DNA from: Candidatus Methanophagaceae archaeon
Lineage (GTDB): Archaea; Halobacteriota; Syntropharchaeia; Alkanophagales; Methanospirareceae
Direction: 5' to 3'
Length of the DNA stretch: 64,000 bases
NCBI GenBank assembly: GCA_003194435.1
Contig: PQXC01000001.1
Location: 70,991 to 134,990, forward strand
Both the position numbers and the translations under genes were made by a program. Every line of letters starts with the position of its first letter. Position 1 is the first letter of the stretch. The notes beneath the pieces were generated by a model. The model worked only from the letters and a program-made list of their open reading frames with translations, searched no databases and was not told where the DNA came from. Shown here piece after piece: positions 53,836 to 63,664 of the stretch.

Positions 53836-55806
53836 ATGAGAGCGGTTTGGAGCGGTTCTATAAGCTGGGGACTTGTAAATATACCGATAAAATTATATTC
53901 GGCAGTGGAATCCAGGGGAGCAGATTTCAAGTTGTTGTGTAAGGAGCATAAATCGCCGATACGTTATAAGCGGGTCTGTGAAGCTGGAGGAGAAGAGGTT
54001 GGATGGAACGATATTGTTAATGGATTAGAACTGGAAAAAGGCAATTATTTTATACTCACAAAAGATGAACTGGATAAACTAAAACCAGAAGGAAAGGAGA
54101 ATCTGGAGATATTAGAATTTGTGGATAAAAGAGAATTGGAGCCGATTTACTATGATAAGAGCTATTTCGCAGTGCCAAAGGAAAAGAGCGAGAAGGCGTA
54201 TTTCCTGCTCAAAGAACTGCTGGATGAAATGGGAATCATCGCAATAGGTAAATTTGTGATGCGGAACAAGGAGTATATATGCGCTTTACAGCCTTTTAGG
54301 GAGGGTATGCTTTTATCTACACTCCATTATCACCAGTATGTCAGAGACATCGGCGAAATCGTGATGGGAGAGCGACCCGAGATAGGTGCTGAGGAGAAGG
54401 AGTTGGGCAAGCTGCTCATAGAGAAGCATCTCAAAAAAGAACTTCATCTGGAGAAGTTCAGGGATACATTCATGGAACGATTGAAAGATTTGATAAGGAG
54501 GAAGATGGAAGGTAAAGAGATAGAAATAGGTGAATTGCCGAAGCGAGAAGAGAAAAGCCTCGTGGATGCATTAAAAGCGAGTGTGGAAGGTATTGAAAAA
54601 CCAGCGCCAACAATACCTGTAACAACACCAATAGCGTATCCGGAGGAGCGCGCGAAAGGGGTGGAGCGCATTAGCATTAGCCGAGAATACCTCCCTATGC
54701 TATGCGAAAAGGGGATAGAAAGGGTTCTCGATGAAAAAGGCTATATTTTTGAACCCAAGATGGATGGGACGAGGTGTATAGCAGAGGTGTACGAGGAGGT
54801 GAGGCTGATCAACAGAAGAGGGAGGGATATAAGCAAGAGATACCCCGAGATAGTGAAGGAACTGGGAAGGGTAACACATAACTGTGTTTTAGATGGAGAA
54901 ATCGTGTGTTTTAATGAAGAAGGGGTTCCCGATTTCAATCTATTACAAAAAAGAGAGCAAATTGATTCGGATTTACTGATAGAAGCCAGAGCAAAGGGGA
55001 TACCTGCAACATATGTGGTATTTGACATCCTGGCAAGAGGAGAAGAAGATTTATCAGAGAAGCCGTTGGGTGAGAGGAAGAAGATATTGGATGAAACGGT
55101 GCAAGATGCTGAGCACATCATGAAAATTGATTATGAGGCGGATGGTAGAAAGCTCTGGGACGAGATAAGGAAAAAGGGGATGGAGGGCGTGGTTGCCAAA
55201 AGAGTGGATAGTGCTTATTACCCCGGAATGAGGAAATGGGATTGGCTCAAGCTGAAAAATTTGAAGACAATTGATGTGGTGCTCGTGGGTTATACCACTG
55301 AGAAACGAGAGATAAGCGCTCTGGGAATGGCTCTCTATCAGGATGCTGACCTGGTTTACATAGGCAGTGTGGGAACGGGCTTTAGTGAGAATTTAATAAA
55401 GATGTTGAAGCGCGAGATAAGGGAATTAAAGTTAAAAACAGATAAAGCACCGGTAGTTAACCCGGAGAAAGTTAAGCATAAGGGAATGAAATGGATCAAA
55501 CCGCATCTTGTGGGCGAGATACAGTATCTCGAGGTGACTGGCGGCGGTGAGTTAAGGGCGCCGAGTTTTAAGGGGTTAAGGTGGGATAAGCCCATAGAAG
55601 AATGCAGTTTCGACCAGTTGTGGAAGGGGAGAATAGAAGAGTGCATTGAGATATTTAATCACGAGGCGGCTCAGCCTGTGAGTGTATATGAACATGAACG
55701 ACTGTGTGAGGATTACCTTGTTGAGCAGCCTACGCTGTTAAAAGGCGGTAGTGCTATTCCATATGCCTGGGTTAAGGCAAAACTGGAGGCATATAGGAGG
55801 GGATAG
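53836..55806 (+). CDS. Fusion protein: N-terminal Ku DNA-end-binding domain (~aa 1-260) joined to a C-terminal ATP-dependent DNA ligase (LigD-type ligase domain, ~aa 283-656).
   Basis: Ku: 'AVWSGSISWGLVNIPIKLYSAVE' (bacterial/archaeal Ku N-terminal signature), 'YFAVPKEKSEKAYFLLKELL'. Ligase: motif I 'EPKMDGTRCI' (KxDG). Motif III 'YVVFDIL'. Motif IV 'DGEIV'. Motif V 'EGVVAKR'. Motif VI 'KWDWLKLK'. One uninterrupted 656-aa ORF. Confidence 0.8.
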   Translation: MRAVWSGSISWGLVNIPIKLYSAVESRGADFKLLCKEHKSPIRYKRVCEAGGEEVGWNDIVNGLELEKGNYFILTKDELDKLKPEGKENLEILEFVDKRELEPIYYDKSYFAVPKEKSEKAYFLLKELLDEMGIIAIGKFVMRNKEYICALQPFREGMLLSTLHYHQYVRDIGEIVMGERPEIGAEEKELGKLLIEKHLKKELHLEKFRDTFMERLKDLIRRKMEGKEIEIGELPKREEKSLVDALKASVEGIEKPAPTIPVTTPIAYPEERAKGVERISISREYLPMLCEKGIERVLDEKGYIFEPKMDGTRCIAEVYEEVRLINRRGRDISKRYPEIVKELGRVTHNCVLDGEIVCFNEEGVPDFNLLQKREQIDSDLLIEARAKGIPATYVVFDILARGEEDLSEKPLGERKKILDETVQDAEHIMKIDYEADGRKLWDEIRKKGMEGVVAKRVDSAYYPGMRKWDWLKLKNLKTIDVVLVGYTTEKREISALGMALYQDADLVYIGSVGTGFSENLIKMLKREIRELKLKTDKAPVVNPEKVKHKGMKWIKPHLVGEIQYLEVTGGGELRAPSFKGLRWDKPIEECSFDQLWKGRIEECIEIFNHEAAQPVSVYEHERLCEDYLVEQPTLLKGGSAIPYAWVKAKLEAYRRG

Positions 55807-56125: not shown

Positions 56126-56407
56126 ATGATAAGGGTCTATTCAACGAAGGTTTGCCCACATTGCAAGCAGGTGAAGGATTTTTTAGCTGCAGCAGGCGTG
56201 AAATATGAAGATGTGGATATTACAACTCCTGAAGCACTTACCGAACTGAGAATGAACGGTGTATTCACGCTTATTACTCCCGTTCTCCAGGTTGGTTCTA
56301 CATTTATCACTCATGAGGAGCTATTTGATGGTGAGGATTTGAAGGTGGAAACGCTAAAAAAATTGATTGGGGAAAAGGAAGAAGGAGGAGGAAAAGAGGA
56401 GGTATAG
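56126..56407 (+). CDS. Glutaredoxin-like (NrdH-like) small redox protein.
   Basis: 'VYSTKVCPHCKQVKDFL' CxxC thioredoxin-fold motif. 93 aa. Directly upstream of nrdD. Confidence 0.6.
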   Translation: MIRVYSTKVCPHCKQVKDFLAAAGVKYEDVDITTPEALTELRMNGVFTLITPVLQVGSTFITHEELFDGEDLKVETLKKLIGEKEEGGGKEEV

Positions 56408-56416
56408 AAGATAGAA

Positions 56417-58714
56417 ATGAGAAAACGATTTGGTAGGGATATGGATAAGGATACGATACAGACGACTCTGGATGGTATGGCATTGCGGTTCCCGAAGGTG
56501 AGAACCAGCGATGGGCATATCCTGGATTGGGATAGGGAGGCGATAGTGAATCAGCTTTTACGAGAGACGAAACTGAGTGAGGATTTTTATGGGTGCCCCG
56601 GGATAACAGAGGAGGAGGCGCGTGATATAGCGAAGAAGGCGGAATTGAAGATAAAAACGATGGGTATAACACAGCTATCGGGTCCTCTCGTGCGCGAGAT
56701 AGTGAACCAGATCTTACTGGAGGATTACAAAAAGCTGGAATGGCGGAATGTATGCACTCGTGTGGGCACGCCGGTCTATGATGCGCACCTCATAGATATA
56801 GGAGAGGGATTTGAAGCAAATGAGAATGCGAATCTACAGGATAATGCGGAGACCTCGCATAAGAAGAAAGCGGACAAGATATGCAAGGAGCAATATCTGT
56901 TGCTACTGCCGCCGAAGTTGGCGGATGCGCATCTGAGCGGGGACTTACATATACACGACCTTGAGTATTTTGGTACACGCGGGTTCTGTCAGGACTGGGA
57001 TTTACGCTACTTCTTCTATTACGGGCTGATGCCCGATGGGTCGGGTACGAAGGCGTCAGTAGCGGGACCGGCGAAGAAGCCTGAAGTTGCTATCCTTCAT
57101 GCTGTCAAGATACTTGGTTCTGCACAGACGAATTTCGCAGGTGGGCAGGGGTTCTTCAATTTCCTCGTATTTATTGCGCCCTATCTTGAAGGGCTGTCAT
57201 ACGAGGAGATAGAGCAGCTCATGCAGATGTTTGTATATGAGATGACGCAGATGCAGGTGGCACGTGGCGGGCAACTGGTCTTCAGTTCCGTCCAGCTCAC
57301 ACCCGGCGTGCCGAAGATATGGCGTGATAAGCCGGTGGTTTATAAAGGCGCGGTCTGGAATGGAGAGCAGGCGCCACTGAGGACATACGGCGAATTTGAG
57401 CGTGAGGTGCGTCTGGCGTTCAAAGCGCTCATGAATGTCATGCTTAAGGGCGATTACTGGGGTAAACCTTTCAACTTCCCGAAGCCGGAGGTGGCAATAG
57501 AGCCTCAATTCCTGGAGGAGGATGAGGAGTTCAATAAGAACCATCCAGAATTGCCCACCTGGGGTGAGCTCTATGACCTCGCATTTAGACTGGCGGCTGA
57601 GTATGGCACGCCCTACTTCGATAATAAGATACCGGAGTATAGGGGTGCAGGCGAGGGTGTTTCATGCTATCAGTGCTGTGCATATTCGTTCAAGACATCA
57701 CCGGATGATGAAGGGTTCAATGATAAGATGTATTTCCGAAATGGCAAGCATTTCTCGATGGGCGGTTGGCAGGTAGTAACAATAAACTGTCCGAGAGCGG
57801 CATATCGTGCAGAAGGGGATGATGATAAGCTATTTGAGGAGTTAAAGAAACAGATTGACCTCTCAATAGAGATATTCAGAGTGAAGAAGCAATGGATGGA
57901 TAAGATAGTGAGAGCAGGGCGAATGCCTTTCGCCACACAGCGCCCAAAAGACCCTTATACGGGTGAGAAGGGCGATGTCGCTGTCTATTTAGACGAACTT
58001 GTGTATATCGTGGGAGTGGTGGGGATAAATGAGATGGTGCAATACCACTACGGGAAGCAGATGCACGAAGATAGAGGTGCTTTACGGCTCGCAGTTCGTG
58101 CAATGACGGAGATGGAACTGTATGTGAAAGAATTAACAGAAAGAGAAGGTTTTGAGATCAGCTTCTCACGCACACCCGCGGAGACAGTGGCACAGCGATT
58201 CGCAGTTGCCGATCTGCTGAATGAAGAGTTCAGGGAGAAGGCGATGACGGTAGTGAAGGGCGACCTGCCACGGGCTTTAGAGCTGATGGGCAAGACGAGG
58301 GATTTACCGATTTATTACACTAACGGGACTCATGTGCCTCCAAATGCCGATATCTCGCTCGCCAAGCGAATAAGCATTGAGCATATCTTCTTCCCCATCG
58401 TTGATGGTGGTGACATCATGCACATATTCCTCGGCGAGGGGTATCCCGACTGGCGGGGTATAAAGAGTCTGGCAATGAAGATAGCAACGAAGACGCAAAC
58501 GGGCTATTTCGCATTCACGAAAGATATGACCGTATGCATGGATTGCTCGCATGTGACGATGGGTTTGAAGGAAGAGTGTGAGAACTGCCATTCCCGTAAT
58601 CTGGATTATATATCGAGGATAACGGGCTATCTGCAATCGGTGAGTGGATGGAATGCGGGTAAGAAGCAGGAGTTGCTGGACCGTATGCGATACGGAGCGG
58701 ATGAGGTCAGGTAA
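56417..58714 (+). CDS. nrdD: Anaerobic ribonucleoside-triphosphate reductase (class III, glycyl-radical).
   Basis: N-terminal ATP-cone-like region. C-terminal Zn ribbon 'CMDCSHV...CENCHS'. Glycyl-radical motif 'SRITGYLQ'. 765 aa. Confidence 0.85.
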   Translation: MRKRFGRDMDKDTIQTTLDGMALRFPKVRTSDGHILDWDREAIVNQLLRETKLSEDFYGCPGITEEEARDIAKKAELKIKTMGITQLSGPLVREIVNQILLEDYKKLEWRNVCTRVGTPVYDAHLIDIGEGFEANENANLQDNAETSHKKKADKICKEQYLLLLPPKLADAHLSGDLHIHDLEYFGTRGFCQDWDLRYFFYYGLMPDGSGTKASVAGPAKKPEVAILHAVKILGSAQTNFAGGQGFFNFLVFIAPYLEGLSYEEIEQLMQMFVYEMTQMQVARGGQLVFSSVQLTPGVPKIWRDKPVVYKGAVWNGEQAPLRTYGEFEREVRLAFKALMNVMLKGDYWGKPFNFPKPEVAIEPQFLEEDEEFNKNHPELPTWGELYDLAFRLAAEYGTPYFDNKIPEYRGAGEGVSCYQCCAYSFKTSPDDEGFNDKMYFRNGKHFSMGGWQVVTINCPRAAYRAEGDDDKLFEELKKQIDLSIEIFRVKKQWMDKIVRAGRMPFATQRPKDPYTGEKGDVAVYLDELVYIVGVVGINEMVQYHYGKQMHEDRGALRLAVRAMTEMELYVKELTEREGFEISFSRTPAETVAQRFAVADLLNEEFREKAMTVVKGDLPRALELMGKTRDLPIYYTNGTHVPPNADISLAKRISIEHIFFPIVDGGDIMHIFLGEGYPDWRGIKSLAMKIATKTQTGYFAFTKDMTVCMDCSHVTMGLKEECENCHSRNLDYISRITGYLQSVSGWNAGKKQELLDRMRYGADEVR

Positions 58715-58846: not shown

Positions 58847-61800
58847 CTACATGAACTCATCCAGTGCCTTCTGCTTATCAGCAGTAGGGAAGAGCAACTC
58901 AACGTCTCGCTTCAGCAGTTCCAATCGCTGTCTCGTGTATTTACTCAGGTGATACTCATCAGCTATGCGCAGTGATTCCGATAGATATTTCTTTATTCCC
59001 GCAGCGTGCACCGTAGGCAGTAATTTCCCGCCGCATCGGCTGCACCTGCCCGTAAGTGGCACTCTCCGGTATTTCGCATTGCAGCGACTGCACCGCACCC
59101 TCTGAGTGCCGAACGCGCGGAGATTGCCCTTTATATCGCGCAGAAAATGGTTCTTTATCACCGTCTCCGCAACTTCACGTGCATCCACCGCTCTTATAAG
59201 TCTTGCCAGCCTCAATTGTGCATCTACCTTATCCATCATCGTACCCAGCGTCTTGTAGAGCGAGTTCAAAGGACCTGCTGCAATCTCCGTTGTATCATGC
59301 GTGTAGCCGAACCCGTAAACATCGCCCGGGTGGTCTATTCGCGTGGCTGCCGTCTCTACTGCGACCTCTTTTGGATGCTTACCCAACTCGGCGGCGAGAT
59401 AGAAGTCCAGAGGGTATTCCCACATGATAGAGAGGTTATGTGCCTCTTTATCCACCTCCTTCGGGTTTATTACCGGTATGAGAACTAAAGGTGCATCCAT
59501 TCTGCCCCCGATCTTATCGGGCAAGAAAGATAGCGAGAAGTTCAGTAGCGCATCCAGCAGCAGAATTATTGAGTCCTCATCGCCGTCACAGTTGCCGGTC
59601 AGCACAGAGCCATTTGCCAAAAAATTGTGATGCCCTTCTACTTCTATATCGTATAAGAACCCAAATTCCGACTTAACCGGTTCTATCTCCTTTATTTCGT
59701 CAAGAACAGCATCGCCGAACGAAGAGATACGAGGTGCTTTCTCTTTTGCCAATACTGCTCTCAATGCTTCGTTCTTTCTTTTCTCTACGAAACCGATTGC
59801 CTCACCAAATTTTCGCGCATATCGCGAACTTATAAAGAGATAATGAAGGTCAAAGACCGGTAATTCCTCTCCACTTTTACCTTTACCCTTTCGCTCGTAG
59901 AATCGTCTGGCAACACCTCCGGCAGCTTTTGTCTCTCTTTTCAAGCGGCAGAATATACCAAATCGGAGCAACTGCAATCCGATGTCCCGCAGTAGCTTCT
60001 CGCTCACTGAGCAACAGGAGACCACAAGTCTGTTTCTTTCCACAGAGCCATCACCTGAGAAATAGGCACTCAGCAACCACTTCATCTTATCGCGAGGAAT
60101 ATTCCACAGTAACGGTGGAATTCGCTTATCTTTTGCTCCTTTGCCCGTACCCAGAACATCCACAAATAGATGGTATATCAATCGGTTTGATATGACGAGC
60201 ACTCCCTCTCCCTCTTTTATGCTCGGTGAAAAACCAAAAACATCTTTGACGCAGTTCACCATGTCATCTAAGAGCTTCTTTTCCCGCGATGAGATGCTGA
60301 CCTGATAGAATTCCTTTTCAGTGCTTCTTGCATAGCCTTCTGCGAGATAATAGCCAATAAGCCGCATGAAAGGCTCGTCAAGCCTGATCATTCGCGGAAT
60401 TGCCGTATTACCTCTTTTAACACCGAGCTGGCATTCACGCGGGATTGCAGTCCAATCGCGGTGCGACCGCTTGAGTAACGAATGCAAAATAGGTAGCGGG
60501 ATGCTATCACGATAAACATAATTTGAAAATGTCTTTTTCCTGATTCCCATCTGCTCGGCAGCGCGTTTGAGCCCTCCCAGGTCTTTTATTAGCTCTTCTA
60601 CTACTGCTCGCACTCCTCTTACCATCACGTCCCGATAAAGGTCATCAAAGTGCAAAAATTCTTTCAGAAGGTCTATTTCTGCTCTCTCCTCTTCTTTAAG
60701 CTCGAGCTTTTCCGGCACTAATAGCATATCTTTATCATCCAGTTCCAGAACTTTTTTGTACTGGATTTTACCGTTTGCGTTTGCGTTTGTGTTTGCGTTG
60801 GACCATACCGTAGTTCGGTGCTCGGGTGACGCGACGAATTCTCTGCCCGACCTGGTTCTCACACGCACGAGATGTGCCGGTGCAGGTGTTTTAATCACTG
60901 ATTTGATCTCCTTCAGTTCAAACTGCCCATTCTCTGGATTCAATGCATACGTCTTAATTCCTTCAATTGTTCTTCGTGTTGTACCAAAATCATCAACAAC
61001 CTCTTCATGTGCGTTTTCGCCATTACTATTATACAGCGACTCCAGGTCTATACTTTTTAATCCCCCGGCAGAGTCCGTGACCAGAACTTCGGTATTTGGC
61101 GTCAAACAGTTCCTTCGCTTCGCTGCATGGAAGAAAGGATGTGCATAACAGGCAGAGGCACGCGTGAATCCTATTATCCTGCCCAGTATTCCTGCGGAGG
61201 TGTGTGGTGCCAGTCCAAGCACAAACTGCCCGATCAGGTCCTCCTTAGTTCTTACATTGTAATAGCGTGGTATTTGATAGAACTTCTCCAGCAGCTCGTC
61301 CAGGAACTTCGTAACACGGATGAGATAAGGAACGGCATTAGCAGAGATGATGATATCCTGTTGCTTCAACTCCACTATCTGCGTATCGCTTCTCAGCTCC
61401 TCACCGTTTATATCATGCAAATAGCCAAGCTCTCGTGCTCGTTCAACGCTTAATCCTATCTCACGGAGCTTGAAATGCGTTAATGGTAAATTAGTGAAGT
61501 CGTATCTTATCGTGCCATCTTTATAGACAAAGACGTCATGTTTCGCCCTTAATATGCCCTTAGCAAGATGTTCAGGCACTTTGTTGCCCGAGATGAGTCC
61601 CGTTACACATTTAACATCATGCTTCGTCAATTCGTGCTCATCACCGAGCCTCTTTATTGCATCATGATAGAACTGGTAGAGGTCTATACTCATACTCCGC
61701 CTGTTATTGTTACTGCTCCTGCTGTTGCTTCTGCTACTCCCCCCATGGGTCTTGAGATTGGAGGAGCCACATTTATCGCATCTGGAATAGCAAGATAGTA

Positions 61801-63664
61801 ATACGTTCCCGCAGTCCATGCATCTCTTCACTCCCACCTCTACATCTATCACCTTTGACTTCAACGCTTCCTTTAGTGACCTGTTCTTACCGCCTGCCGC
61901 GCCTACCGGGAAGATTGCATGTGGTGCGGGAGTCATCATTCTTTCTCGCGATTTCTCCGGTCTACCCATTCGCATACCGATTCTCGTAGGTGCTTTTGGC
62001 TTATGCTTCAATCGCACGGATTCGTCCTTCTTCAATCCCCTTCCAATGCCCAGACCGCGAAGAAAAGCATCAGGCTCCTCTATTACTATATAGCGGTAGC
62101 GGGCATTTCTGTCTCTGTGGAAGGGAATAAGCAGGTCTTCCAGAATCGGTATCACTCTGCCGTTCTCATCCTCGGGTATGAGCAGTTTACCATCCCGCAA
62201 CGCACCGCTCTTACATACCCAGTCGGATAGGAATTCCCTGTCTTCGCCACTTATATCCTCCCACAGGTATGTATATGCGGGATGCAACGGCAGGTCGTAA
62301 CGTAACGAGAGCGCAATTGCTTCTTCCTGTGTGGGTATCTTCGAGCGCCATTTAGACGCTTCATCCTTGGATTTCAACTCCAATTCCCGCAGCCAGTATT
62401 CGTGTGCATACGCTCCGGGCTTTAATAATTGCCCGGTCTCCAAAAAGTCACCATAATCTATTAGCACCTCGCCCAGGTCAACAATTTCTAATATTTCATC
62501 GGCATCAACATCGTCATGGCTTTCAAGCTTGCGGAGGTCGCCATTCCTCAGTTTCACCACCGGTCCCTCAATGGAATCCACGGGCACAATACATGCAGCT
62601 TTGCCTGGTAGCTCGGGCTTTACCTGCGTGCCGGGGGCGATGAATCCGAGCAGCGACATCGTAGCCGGGTGCATTCCAATAGCGGCGAAGCCTGAGTTCC
62701 TCGCACGTCCATAGCGAAGCCGAAAGGAGCCCTTATTCGCTGGACGCCCAAACACCGGTCTACCAGCAATCAAATCGTCCAGAAACGCTTTCTTCCTGGT
62801 CTCGCGCTTGCTCTTTATCAGTTTATCCAGCCATTCCCAGCCATCAATGCCGAGCTTCTCCACATATCGCTTTAGCTTCGGCGCCTTCATCGCTATACCC
62901 TCCGTGAGTACAAGTACCATACCCCCTCTTATCCTGTTCGTCGCCACCCTCTCAAGGTCTTTATAGGCATCCACCTCCTTATCCTCCGTCGGGTCACCAT
63001 CTATGCATATCGGGCAGTTTCTCACTATCTCCCTTATCTCATCATCCGACGGTGTATATTGCAACCCGCTTATGCGCGCATAGGCTGATACTTCCAGCAC
63101 ATAGCGCCATATCTCCTCATCCCGCGGTGAATACGCTGCGAATCCCATCCGTTTCCTTATATAGTCAGCAGCCAGCACGGAGAGTGCCTGCGCGGTGCCG
63201 CCAGCACTTCTTATCGGACCCGAATAGAATATCTTTATGTATTCTGTGGAGTCATCGTTCCTCCCGACCTCTATACGTGATATCCCATCCAGTGGTGCTG
63301 CGACCACACCTTCCGTGAGAACAGCCACTGAGGTCCTGACCGCTTTCTCAATGACCTCTTGGCGCTTGTAATTCCCGAACTTAGCGGTAGCGAAATCGAG
63401 TGCGATCTTTAATGCCACCTCCTCTCTGCCATAGCCCTCGTGCTCCAGTTCCCTTATGCGCGCACCCACACCTTTTATCCCTATCAATGCCTCCACTCGC
63501 TCTGCAAGGTCACTCGTCACCTTTATTTCGGGCTGCAGAGCAGGATCAAGACCCTTACTCCTCGCTCGCTTCGCTATCTCAAGTTCGTTCGCTAAGCCCT
63601 TCTTCAGTAGCCCATGATACTGGTTCTGGTTCTTGTTCCGGTTCTTCAAATGCTCTGCCATCAT
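58847..63664 (-). CDS. DNA polymerase II (PolD) large subunit DP2, interrupted by an in-frame intein.
   Basis: Exteins match the DP2 pattern ('...GRIIGFTRASACYAHPFFHAAKRRN | CDGDEDSIILLLDALLNFS...', Zn-finger 'CSRCNAKY...CSRCGGKL' at the C-terminal end). 1605 aa total, 1099 aa without the intein. Confidence 0.9.
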   Translation of the reverse strand: MMAEHLKNRNKNQNQYHGLLKKGLANELEIAKRARSKGLDPALQPEIKVTSDLAERVEALIGIKGVGARIRELEHEGYGREEVALKIALDFATAKFGNYKRQEVIEKAVRTSVAVLTEGVVAAPLDGISRIEVGRNDDSTEYIKIFYSGPIRSAGGTAQALSVLAADYIRKRMGFAAYSPRDEEIWRYVLEVSAYARISGLQYTPSDDEIREIVRNCPICIDGDPTEDKEVDAYKDLERVATNRIRGGMVLVLTEGIAMKAPKLKRYVEKLGIDGWEWLDKLIKSKRETRKKAFLDDLIAGRPVFGRPANKGSFRLRYGRARNSGFAAIGMHPATMSLLGFIAPGTQVKPELPGKAACIVPVDSIEGPVVKLRNGDLRKLESHDDVDADEILEIVDLGEVLIDYGDFLETGQLLKPGAYAHEYWLRELELKSKDEASKWRSKIPTQEEAIALSLRYDLPLHPAYTYLWEDISGEDREFLSDWVCKSGALRDGKLLIPEDENGRVIPILEDLLIPFHRDRNARYRYIVIEEPDAFLRGLGIGRGLKKDESVRLKHKPKAPTRIGMRMGRPEKSRERMMTPAPHAIFPVGAAGGKNRSLKEALKSKVIDVEVGVKRCMDCGNVLLSCYSRCDKCGSSNLKTHGGSSRSNSRSSNNNRRSMSIDLYQFYHDAIKRLGDEHELTKHDVKCVTGLISGNKVPEHLAKGILRAKHDVFVYKDGTIRYDFTNLPLTHFKLREIGLSVERARELGYLHDINGEELRSDTQIVELKQQDIIISANAVPYLIRVTKFLDELLEKFYQIPRYYNVRTKEDLIGQFVLGLAPHTSAGILGRIIGFTRASACYAHPFFHAAKRRNCLTPNTEVLVTDSAGGLKSIDLESLYNSNGENAHEEVVDDFGTTRRTIEGIKTYALNPENGQFELKEIKSVIKTPAPAHLVRVRTRSGREFVASPEHRTTVWSNANTNANANGKIQYKKVLELDDKDMLLVPEKLELKEEERAEIDLLKEFLHFDDLYRDVMVRGVRAVVEELIKDLGGLKRAAEQMGIRKKTFSNYVYRDSIPLPILHSLLKRSHRDWTAIPRECQLGVKRGNTAIPRMIRLDEPFMRLIGYYLAEGYARSTEKEFYQVSISSREKKLLDDMVNCVKDVFGFSPSIKEGEGVLVISNRLIYHLFVDVLGTGKGAKDKRIPPLLWNIPRDKMKWLLSAYFSGDGSVERNRLVVSCCSVSEKLLRDIGLQLLRFGIFCRLKRETKAAGGVARRFYERKGKGKSGEELPVFDLHYLFISSRYARKFGEAIGFVEKRKNEALRAVLAKEKAPRISSFGDAVLDEIKEIEPVKSEFGFLYDIEVEGHHNFLANGSVLTGNCDGDEDSIILLLDALLNFSLSFLPDKIGGRMDAPLVLIPVINPKEVDKEAHNLSIMWEYPLDFYLAAELGKHPKEVAVETAATRIDHPGDVYGFGYTHDTTEIAAGPLNSLYKTLGTMMDKVDAQLRLARLIRAVDAREVAETVIKNHFLRDIKGNLRAFGTQRVRCSRCNAKYRRVPLTGRCSRCGGKLLPTVHAAGIKKYLSESLRIADEYHLSKYTRQRLELLKRDVELLFPTADKQKALDEFM
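59591..61108 (-). mobile_element. Intein (~506 aa) with a double-motif LAGLIDADG homing-endonuclease domain inserted in DP2.
   Basis: Begins 'CLTPNTEVLV' (Cys1) immediately after extein 'AAKRRN'. Ends '...GSVLTGN' followed by extein Cys+1 ('CDGDED'). LAGLIDADG blocks 'LIGYYLAEGYA' and 'LLSAYFSGDGSV'. C-terminal splicing block 'YDIEVEGHHNFLANGSVLTGN'. Confidence 0.8.

Follow-up and report, generated by a model that had tools for sequence, protein, structure and literature searches.

A 64,000-nucleotide stretch of a contig from a methane-oxidising archaeon (Candidatus Methanophagaceae; ANME-1, Methanophagales), referred to here as the window, carries on its minus strand the gene for DP2, the large subunit of the replicative DNA polymerase PolD, and this gene is interrupted by an insert of 506 amino acids (aa). 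Taken as a whole, the data are very probably best explained by a genuine, splicing-competent class 1 intein that sits in the catalytic loop of DP2, holds a nested LAGLIDADG endonuclease, is mobile, and has a native Gly at the penultimate position, where the intein consensus has His. The evidence comprises the exact boundaries of the insert, the presence of all class 1 catalytic positions, the recurrence of the Gly-Asn end in independently assembled sequences, signs of purifying selection, and the existence of intein-free alleles in close relatives.

The insert in the DP2 gene and its boundaries

The DP2 precursor gene was found at positions 58847..63664 of the window (minus strand) as one unbroken open reading frame (ORF) of 1605 aa, and its translation was an exact match to PXF53940.1, a protein from a Candidatus Methanophagaceae metagenome-assembled genome (MAG). 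Pfam recognized the domains PolC_DP2_N, PolC_DP2_central, and PolC_DP2_cat in the precursor, the last of which, the catalytic domain, is divided into two stretches by the insert. The latter goes from Cys853 to Asn1358 (Cys1 ... Gly505-Asn506 in intein numbering) and maps to 59591..61108 on the minus strand, the strand of all the intein and extein features given below. It is flanked by an N-extein of residues 1-852, ending in ...HPFFHAAKRRN (61109..63664), and by a C-extein of 247 aa plus the stop codon, whose first residue is Cys+1 (58847..59590); DP2 without the insert has 1100 aa. The junctions read ...HPFFHAAKRRN / CLTPNTEVLV ... EGHHNFLANGSVLTGN / CDGDEDSI..., where the slash marks the splice site. 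The CDGDED motif (59573..59590), which contains Cys+1 and the aspartates in the catalytic loop of the second DP2 double-psi beta-barrel, was invariant in an alignment of 18 sequences.

The identification of the insert as an intein is far beyond chance, because the Pfam and NCBIfam matches to it had E-values of 1e-7 to 1e-19 and DP2 intein homologues matched it at E = 1e-209 to 1e-60. Within the insert, Pfam detected Intein_splicing and two LAGLIDADG_3 (PF14528) stretches (E = 3e-19), and PRK14715, a model of intein-containing DP2, gave 298 bits over the intein alone. The match to TIGR01445 (intein_Nterm) started at residue 853, i.e., Cys1, from position 1 of the model (E = 8e-11), and that to TIGR01443 (intein_Cterm) stopped at residue 1359, the Cys+1 (E = 1e-6 to 1e-7). 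A preliminary description of this DNA had proposed a DP2 intein of about 506 aa at 59591-61108, between HAAKRRN and CDGDED, and both the translation and the ends of these profile matches agreed exactly with its coordinates and boundaries, although the minus strand of the gene had been left unstated.

The two flanks are contiguous in DP2 genes that lack the insert. KRRN/CDGDED was unbroken in approximately 24 of the 33 DP2 loci of a reference genome scan and in more than 40 of 80 metagenome loci retrieved with the spliced junction as the query, and the same flanks were also found around 25 other inteins. Altogether, more than 60 intein-free DP2 genes read through this motif with no gap, which bears out the earlier proposal that removal of the insert restores a contiguous DP2 block. 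Among the DP2 loci returned by the reference genome scan there was no ANME-1 genome with more than 50% identity, and the intein-free close relatives described below came from the metagenome scan. The search for homologous proteins gave only proteins shorter than 1000 aa and missed P0055, a protein of 1582 aa that is the cluster representative of the query; full-length alleles were taken from protein cluster membership. It was also observed that more distant DP2 sequences (L062, L064, L086, L087, L093, L104, and L105) read KRRD/CDGDED, with Asp rather than Asn before the Cys, and that all of them were intein-free in our sample.

There is a His-Asn dipeptide 12 residues before the proposed C-terminal junction, and the intein could conceivably end there (GHHN/F), leaving FLANGSVLTGN as part of the extein. 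We give this boundary almost no chance of being correct. The +1 residue would then be Phe, which is not a nucleophile, and the DP2 loop would gain 11 extra residues that are found in none of the more than 60 intein-free genes. Moreover, TIGR01443 aligns through ...TGN-C, and the pattern F/Y-x-D/S...H-N/T followed by about 10 residues is block F throughout the 32 related inteins, among them the PolII intein of Pyrococcus abyssi (Pab), whose structure has been solved. The HHNF segment of the window aligned with YHNV of this Pab intein, and in related inteins it stands about 10 residues before the true terminus. Alignment to the PolD/DP2 inteins of this site placed the end of the intein where it had originally been set, and HHNF, which had already been told apart from the terminus, was recognized as the conserved block F motif.

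The intein was modelled with AlphaFold2 from an alignment of 18 sequences, with a mean predicted local distance difference test score (pLDDT) of 90.1 and a predicted template modelling score (pTM) of 0.89. The best match of the model in the PDB was PI-PkoII (Foldseek E = 6e-31, template modelling score 0.68), followed by TliVMA and PI-PfuI. The endonuclease part showed the alpha-beta-beta-alpha-beta-beta-alpha pseudo-dimer fold and matched PI-PkoII, PI-PfuI, PI-SceI, and I-DmoI, and the splicing domain, with a HINT fold, superposed on the Pab, Pyrococcus horikoshii (Pho), and RadA mini-inteins at 1.9-2.5 Å; for the Pab and Pho PolII mini-inteins, the values were 2.4-2.5 Å at 27-28% identity. 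In agreement, phmmer searches matched the sequence to the solved structures 2cw7 (1e-20) and 2lcj (7e-10).

Catalytic residues and the penultimate Gly

The catalytic positions of a class 1 intein are all present, namely Cys1, Ser94-x-x-His97 (B:7 and B:10), Asp487 (F:4), His494 in block F, Asn506 (G:7), and Cys+1. Block A (CLTPNTEVLVTD; 61073..61108), delimited by TIGR01445 and the alignment, begins with the nucleophile Cys1. Block B (GREFVASPEHRTTVW; 60803..60847), assigned from alignments, contains Ser B:7, His B:10 (60818-60820), and Arg B:11 (60815-60817), and its S94-P-E-H97 lines up with TVDH of the Pab PolII intein. Block F (FLYDIEVEGHHNFLA; 59615..59659) reads FLYD487IEVEGHH494NF, with Asp F:4 at 59648-59650 and the block F His of HHNF at 59627-59629; this His (H499 in the alignment) was invariant across the 18 aligned sequences. 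Block G (NGSVLTGN; 59591..59614), which TIGR01443 covers through the +1 Cys, closes with Gly G:6 (59594-59596) and Asn G:7 (59591-59593). The consensus penultimate His (G:6) is therefore not found, this residue being Gly1357 of the precursor (codon GGC), as had been noticed before. The possibility of a class 3 intein was also considered and ruled out: the intein has Cys1, Asp at F:4, and Thr at B:12, i.e., there is no Trp-Cys-Thr triplet, and only the Thr at G:5 fits that class.

Between the two splicing lobes, both LAGLIDADG motifs keep their acidic residue. Motif 1 (FMRLIGYYLAEGYA; 60329..60370; LIGYYLAE257G) contains the catalytic Glu257, and its G, Y, and G are nearly invariant; motif 2 (MKWLLSAYFSGDGSV; 60041..60085; LSAYFSGD353G) contains the catalytic Asp353, and Y354 and D358 (alignment numbering) are invariant. 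Both motifs were covered by Pfam LAGLIDADG_3. Endonuclease block D (GAKDKRIPPLL; 60107..60139) conserves K333 and P336 (alignment numbering). These residues, the confident fold, and a domain ratio of nonsynonymous to synonymous substitution rates (dN/dS) of 0.15-0.29 sustain the earlier view that the endonuclease, with its two motifs, looks intact. A helical linker domain with a helix-turn-helix-like segment (LKRAAEQMGIRKKTFSNYVYRDSIPLPILHSLLKR; 60467..60571) was delimited by a weak profile match, to NF046037, that stayed below the cutoff (E = 6e-4), and by helices 172-219 of the model; searched alone against Pfam, it gave no match. We presume that it serves as a DNA-binding accessory domain.

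A hexanucleotide repeat was observed just past block B (AACGCA; 60772..60799, minus strand; period 6 and 4.7 copies in Tandem Repeats Finder), which encodes an (Ala-Asn)n loop. This was the sole internal low-confidence, disordered loop of the model. It reads SNANTNANANG, SNANANG, or SNANRNANG among alleles otherwise 96-97% identical, and SNG, with no repeat, in the L101 lineage; this has the look of a microsatellite that expands in frame within a loop able to tolerate it.

The Gly at G:6 is native, and neither a sequence error nor a misplaced boundary. The source is a MAG, and a sequencing or assembly error in the Gly codon was thus weighed, but we attach practically no probability to it: the end ...VLTGN/CDGDED is shared by at least 10 contigs or proteins that were assembled independently (L057-L060, L101-L103, P0055, P0056, P0059, and P0060), these belong to two lineages with exteins 72-78% identical, and two substitutions are needed to go from GGC to a His codon.

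We gathered 32 distinct C-terminal junctions at the KRRN/CDGDED site. Those ending in Asn were Gly-Asn (5), Ala-Asn (5), Asn-Asn (4), Lys-Asn (1), and Ser-Asn (1); those ending in Gln were Ala-Gln (4), Gly-Gln (3), His-Gln (3), and one each of Lys-Gln, Ser-Gln, Arg-Gln, Glu-Gln, and Phe-Gln; and a single one, Ile-Asp, ended in Asp. His was found at G:6 in only three of the 32, all of them Gln-ending, and in 0/16 of the Asn-terminated subfamily. The junction had been described as non-canonical, and this is true with respect to the general intein consensus, but it overstates the case at the DP2 site, where a non-His residue is the rule. The Asn-terminated subfamily, to which the window intein belongs, starts with Cys-Leu, has S/F-P-x-H-[R/K] in block B and Asp at F:4, and ends in x-Asn; the other subfamily starts with Cys-Phe, has T-x-x-H and Ser, Cys, or Asn at F:4, and ends in x-Gln. 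Hosts of the latter are Pyrococcus, Thermococcus, Archaeoglobaceae, Halobacteria, and Heimdallarchaeota, and mini-inteins are also included in it. Every Asn-terminated member with the N-terminal part available had Arg or Lys at B:11 and Asp at F:4. From this distribution, the G:6 His appears to have been lost ancestrally in the Asn-terminated subfamily, which tolerates Gly, Ala, Asn, Lys, or Ser. Because these five residues vary freely within the subfamily, the data suggest that the G:6 side chain no longer matters.

The Asp-ending junction comes from L004, an uncultured archaeon (CAZZMN010000032.1) whose DP2 intein, of 414 aa and at the same site, ends in ...GGLITID/CDGDED. Its block F lacks the conserved His (…DGNKTFVAG…), and this junction type is rarer than the Gly-Asn one.

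In the proposed splicing route, Cys1 would form a thioester with the N-extein after translation, Cys+1 would take over the N-extein by transesterification, Asn506 would cyclise and release the intein, and an S-to-N shift would restore the ...KRRN-CDGDED... loop with its catalytic aspartates. In the unspliced precursor, the 506 residues sit directly before these aspartates. Two invariant Asp residues of the catalytic loop in the second DP2 double-psi beta-barrel, a known intein insertion site, are critical for polymerase activity (Sauguet et al., PMC4996933), and PolD is described as essential (PMC7708050). Because the intein interrupts the loop carrying the catalytic aspartates, the polymerase would be active only after splicing.

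Splicing with no penultimate His has precedents. About 5% of functional inteins lack His at G:6, and restoring His there benefits certain inteins and impairs others; Arg B:11 of the Ssp DnaE intein changes its orientation and assists Asn cyclisation (PMC4031507). A phage class 1 intein with a penultimate Gly splices fully and is slowed down by a Gly-to-His change, and an upstream block F His is able to assume the role of the G:6 His (Kelley et al., PMC5050341). The window intein holds both candidate substitutes, Arg98 (B:11) and the block F His494, and the invariant His494 would help Asn cyclisation, as would probably Arg98, in the manner put forward for the Ssp DnaE intein, which also lacks the His. 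A broader version, in which G:6 is functionally free and never His throughout the Asn-terminated DP2 clade (ANME-1 and relatives) and cyclisation of the Asn relies on a fixed trio of B:11 Arg/Lys, F:4 Asp, and block F His, is put forward tentatively, as we consider it somewhat less probable than its negation. If true, this clade would offer a set of naturally occurring variants with which to dissect C-terminal cleavage that does not depend on His, and one site would have given rise to two mechanistically distinct solutions, with the sister clade using a terminal Gln with different partners.

Selection, mobility, and other features of the window

Nei-Gojobori estimates of dN and dS were low in ratio throughout the intein. 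For the window against allele L101, the whole intein gave a dN of 0.091, a dS of 0.47, and a dN/dS of 0.19. By parts, the respective values were 0.097, 0.55, and 0.18 for the N-terminal splicing lobe; 0.094, 0.55, and 0.17 for the linker; 0.090, 0.31, and 0.29 for the endonuclease; and 0.070, 0.96, and 0.07 for the C-terminal splicing lobe. Against L096, the whole intein gave 0.209, 1.28, and 0.16. Since dN/dS is low throughout, all the intein parts, the endonuclease included, appear to be under purifying selection.

These values also bear on whether the insert could be a decayed relic, crippled by the loss of the His and splicing poorly or not at all, in a cell that relies on another polymerase. 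The G:6 His does help Asn cyclisation in many inteins, and some non-His inteins splice poorly until it is restored (PMC4031507, PMC5050341), but the insert splits the DP2 catalytic loop with all the other splicing residues intact, its ORF is unbroken, and its alleles differ only by in-frame indels. Moreover, dN/dS in the splicing blocks was 0.07-0.25, and the His-less state occurred in 16/16 subfamily members across distant hosts, which would not be expected if the element were dead and lodged in a conserved gene of replication. A relic is accordingly regarded as very improbable.

The comparison of intein and extein divergence pointed to lateral transfer. Between the window and L101, the C-extein dS was 1.68, the N-extein dS was saturated, and the combined value was 2.1, against 0.47 for the intein; because the intein dS is far below that of the exteins, the intein would be younger than the split of its two hosts and would have been transferred laterally. 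Compared with the window, P0002 was 76% identical in the intein and 55% in the C-extein, and P0001 was 67% and 77% identical, respectively. An intein-free allele had been proposed as something to look for in close relatives, and it was found: the ANME-1 relatives L034-L036 have full-length, intein-free DP2 with 91% aa identity and a dS of 0.29. The empty site of L034 (CCATTCTTCCATGCAGCGAAGCGAAGGAAC/TGCGACGGCGATGAGGACTCAATAATTCTG) was identical to the spliced junction of the window at 58/60 nucleotides (nt). This presence/absence polymorphism is as expected for a homing element, and, judged from these comparisons, the intein appears to have moved between ANME-1 lineages. Cleavage of the intein-less allele by the endonuclease is predicted from the dN/dS values, the dS contrast, and the polymorphism. 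We looked for a co-conversion tract in the extein flanks of the window and L101, and none was obvious, the 30 nt on each side differing at 4 and 6 positions. It was also observed that the intein-free L047 and L048 (approximately 75% identical, ANME-1-like contigs) and L081 read KRRN/ADGDED, with Ala replacing the +1 Cys, a nucleophile conserved elsewhere; such alleles may resist productive invasion, because an intein there could not splice unless a Cys arrived with it.

The non-His penultimate residue might instead be an adaptive tuning of the rate or conditions (redox, temperature) of PolD maturation, which would make the intein a post-translational regulator of replication and not a neutral parasite. 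A phage intein that is faster with penultimate Gly than with His has been proposed as a case of adaptive tuning (PMC5050341), the Pab PolII intein, which shares the site, is under the control of temperature and of a disulfide linking Cys1 to Cys+1 (PMC8175363), and Gly is conserved in two ANME-1 lineages. However, G, A, N, K, and S vary freely among close subfamily relatives, a pattern that resembles relaxed constraint more than tuning; the two Gly lineages have the intein in common through a recent transfer, and the conservation is thus not independent; and the host does not need the intein, given the intein-free alleles in close relatives. We consider this explanation unlikely, though less so than a relic.

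Several points weigh against a splicing-competent, mobile intein with His-independent chemistry. Splicing and endonuclease activity are predicted from sequence conservation, from selection, and from where the insert sits in the catalytic loop. Compensation by Arg B:11 or the block F His is suggested by covariation and by analogy with other inteins, and the Arg/Lys pattern at B:11 could reflect shared ancestry, i.e., phylogenetic inertia, rather than functional coupling. In the comparison of the window with L058, a very close allele, the intein dN/dS was 0.38 and that of the linker was 1.5, both from very few substitutions. Finally, intein-free alleles whose target is nearly identical persist in metagenomes with similar accession numbers, which could mean that the endonuclease is weak at present or that gene flow is low.

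Other features were observed within the window. A second hexanucleotide repeat lies at 63620-63645, at the 5' end of the DP2 gene (minus strand), reading CTGGTT on the plus strand (4.3 copies); it encodes the N-terminal NKNQNQ stretch, and alleles P0055 and P0060 are shorter there (KNKNQYH). The Ser/Asn/Arg-rich stretch that follows the DP2 zinc finger (GGSSRSNSRSSNNNRRSMS) also has an allele-dependent length. On the plus strand, positions 53836-55806 contain a single ORF of 656 aa that joins a Ku beta-barrel (aa 12-174) with the adenylation and OB domains (aa 287-585) of an ATP-dependent DNA ligase, an archaeal non-homologous end joining fusion that is conserved in approximately 30 ANME-1 sequences. 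A glutaredoxin-like gene (93 aa) directly upstream of the anaerobic ribonucleotide reductase NrdD (765 aa) was found at 56126-58714 (plus strand), both genes being convergent with the DP2 gene.

Comparison with known inteins

The window intein is a member of the known set of DP2 catalytic-loop inteins, and its full length, Asn end, and missing G:6 His are not new in kind. It adds little weight to basic biology, as PolD catalytic-loop inteins, His-less inteins, and intein homing are all established. It does document a currently mobile intein in ANME-1, which cannot be cultured, and its presence/absence polymorphism is usable for tracing gene flow among ANME-1 populations. The pattern at G:6 and B:11 over 32 allelic inteins is also a comparative data set for the chemistry of Asn and Gln cyclisation. 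In the Pab study, splicing was faster with a terminal Asn than with Gln (PMC8175363), and the window intein, a non-halophile DP2 intein ending in Asn, might therefore serve as a protein-engineering scaffold, although ANME-1 archaea are generally not extreme hyperthermophiles.

DP2 catalytic-loop inteins are widespread in Euryarchaeota. The 'pol-IIa' intein allele has been recorded in 75 Halobacteria and 16 other Euryarchaeota (PMC4071816), and it presumably corresponds to the KRRN/CDGDED site, since P. horikoshii is listed under pol-IIa. Our literature search on halophile PolII inteins found nothing among the papers it covered.

The Pab and Pho PolII inteins (PDB 2LCJ, 5BKH, and 7OEC) occupy the same HAAKRRN/CDGDED site of the same host protein (PMC8175363), share class 1 chemistry with Cys1 and Cys+1, and have a homologous splicing domain (phmmer E = 7e-10 to 1e-8). 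They are mini-inteins of 166-185 aa with no endonuclease, a His-Gln end, Thr B:7, Pro B:11, and Ser F:4, whereas the window intein has 506 aa, an endonuclease, a Gly-Asn end, Ser B:7, Arg B:11, and Asp F:4. The full-length DP2 inteins of Thermococcus, Archaeoglobaceae, Halobacteria, and Heimdallarchaeota are at the same site, have 446-517 aa and LAGLIDADG motifs, and are 31-39% identical over the whole intein. Most of them also lack His at G:6 (A, K, G, S, R, E, or F), but they end in Gln and not Asn, start with Cys-Phe and not Cys-Leu, and have Ser, Cys, or Asn at F:4.

As for the His-independent end, the intein of mycobacteriophage Bethlehem gp51 (RDF) is a class 1 intein with a penultimate Gly for which complete splicing was shown (PMC5050341), and the Ssp DnaE intein combines a non-His G:6 with an Arg B:11 that aids Asn cyclisation (PMC4031507), an Arg that the window intein likewise has at B:11. 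Both come from unrelated hosts and sites and show no close sequence kinship with the window intein. Lastly, PI-PkoII, the PolB intein endonuclease of Thermococcus kodakarensis (PDB 2CW7), was the best overall match for the combined endonuclease and splicing architecture, but it resides in a family B polymerase instead of PolD, is 19% identical, and is not allelic to the window intein.

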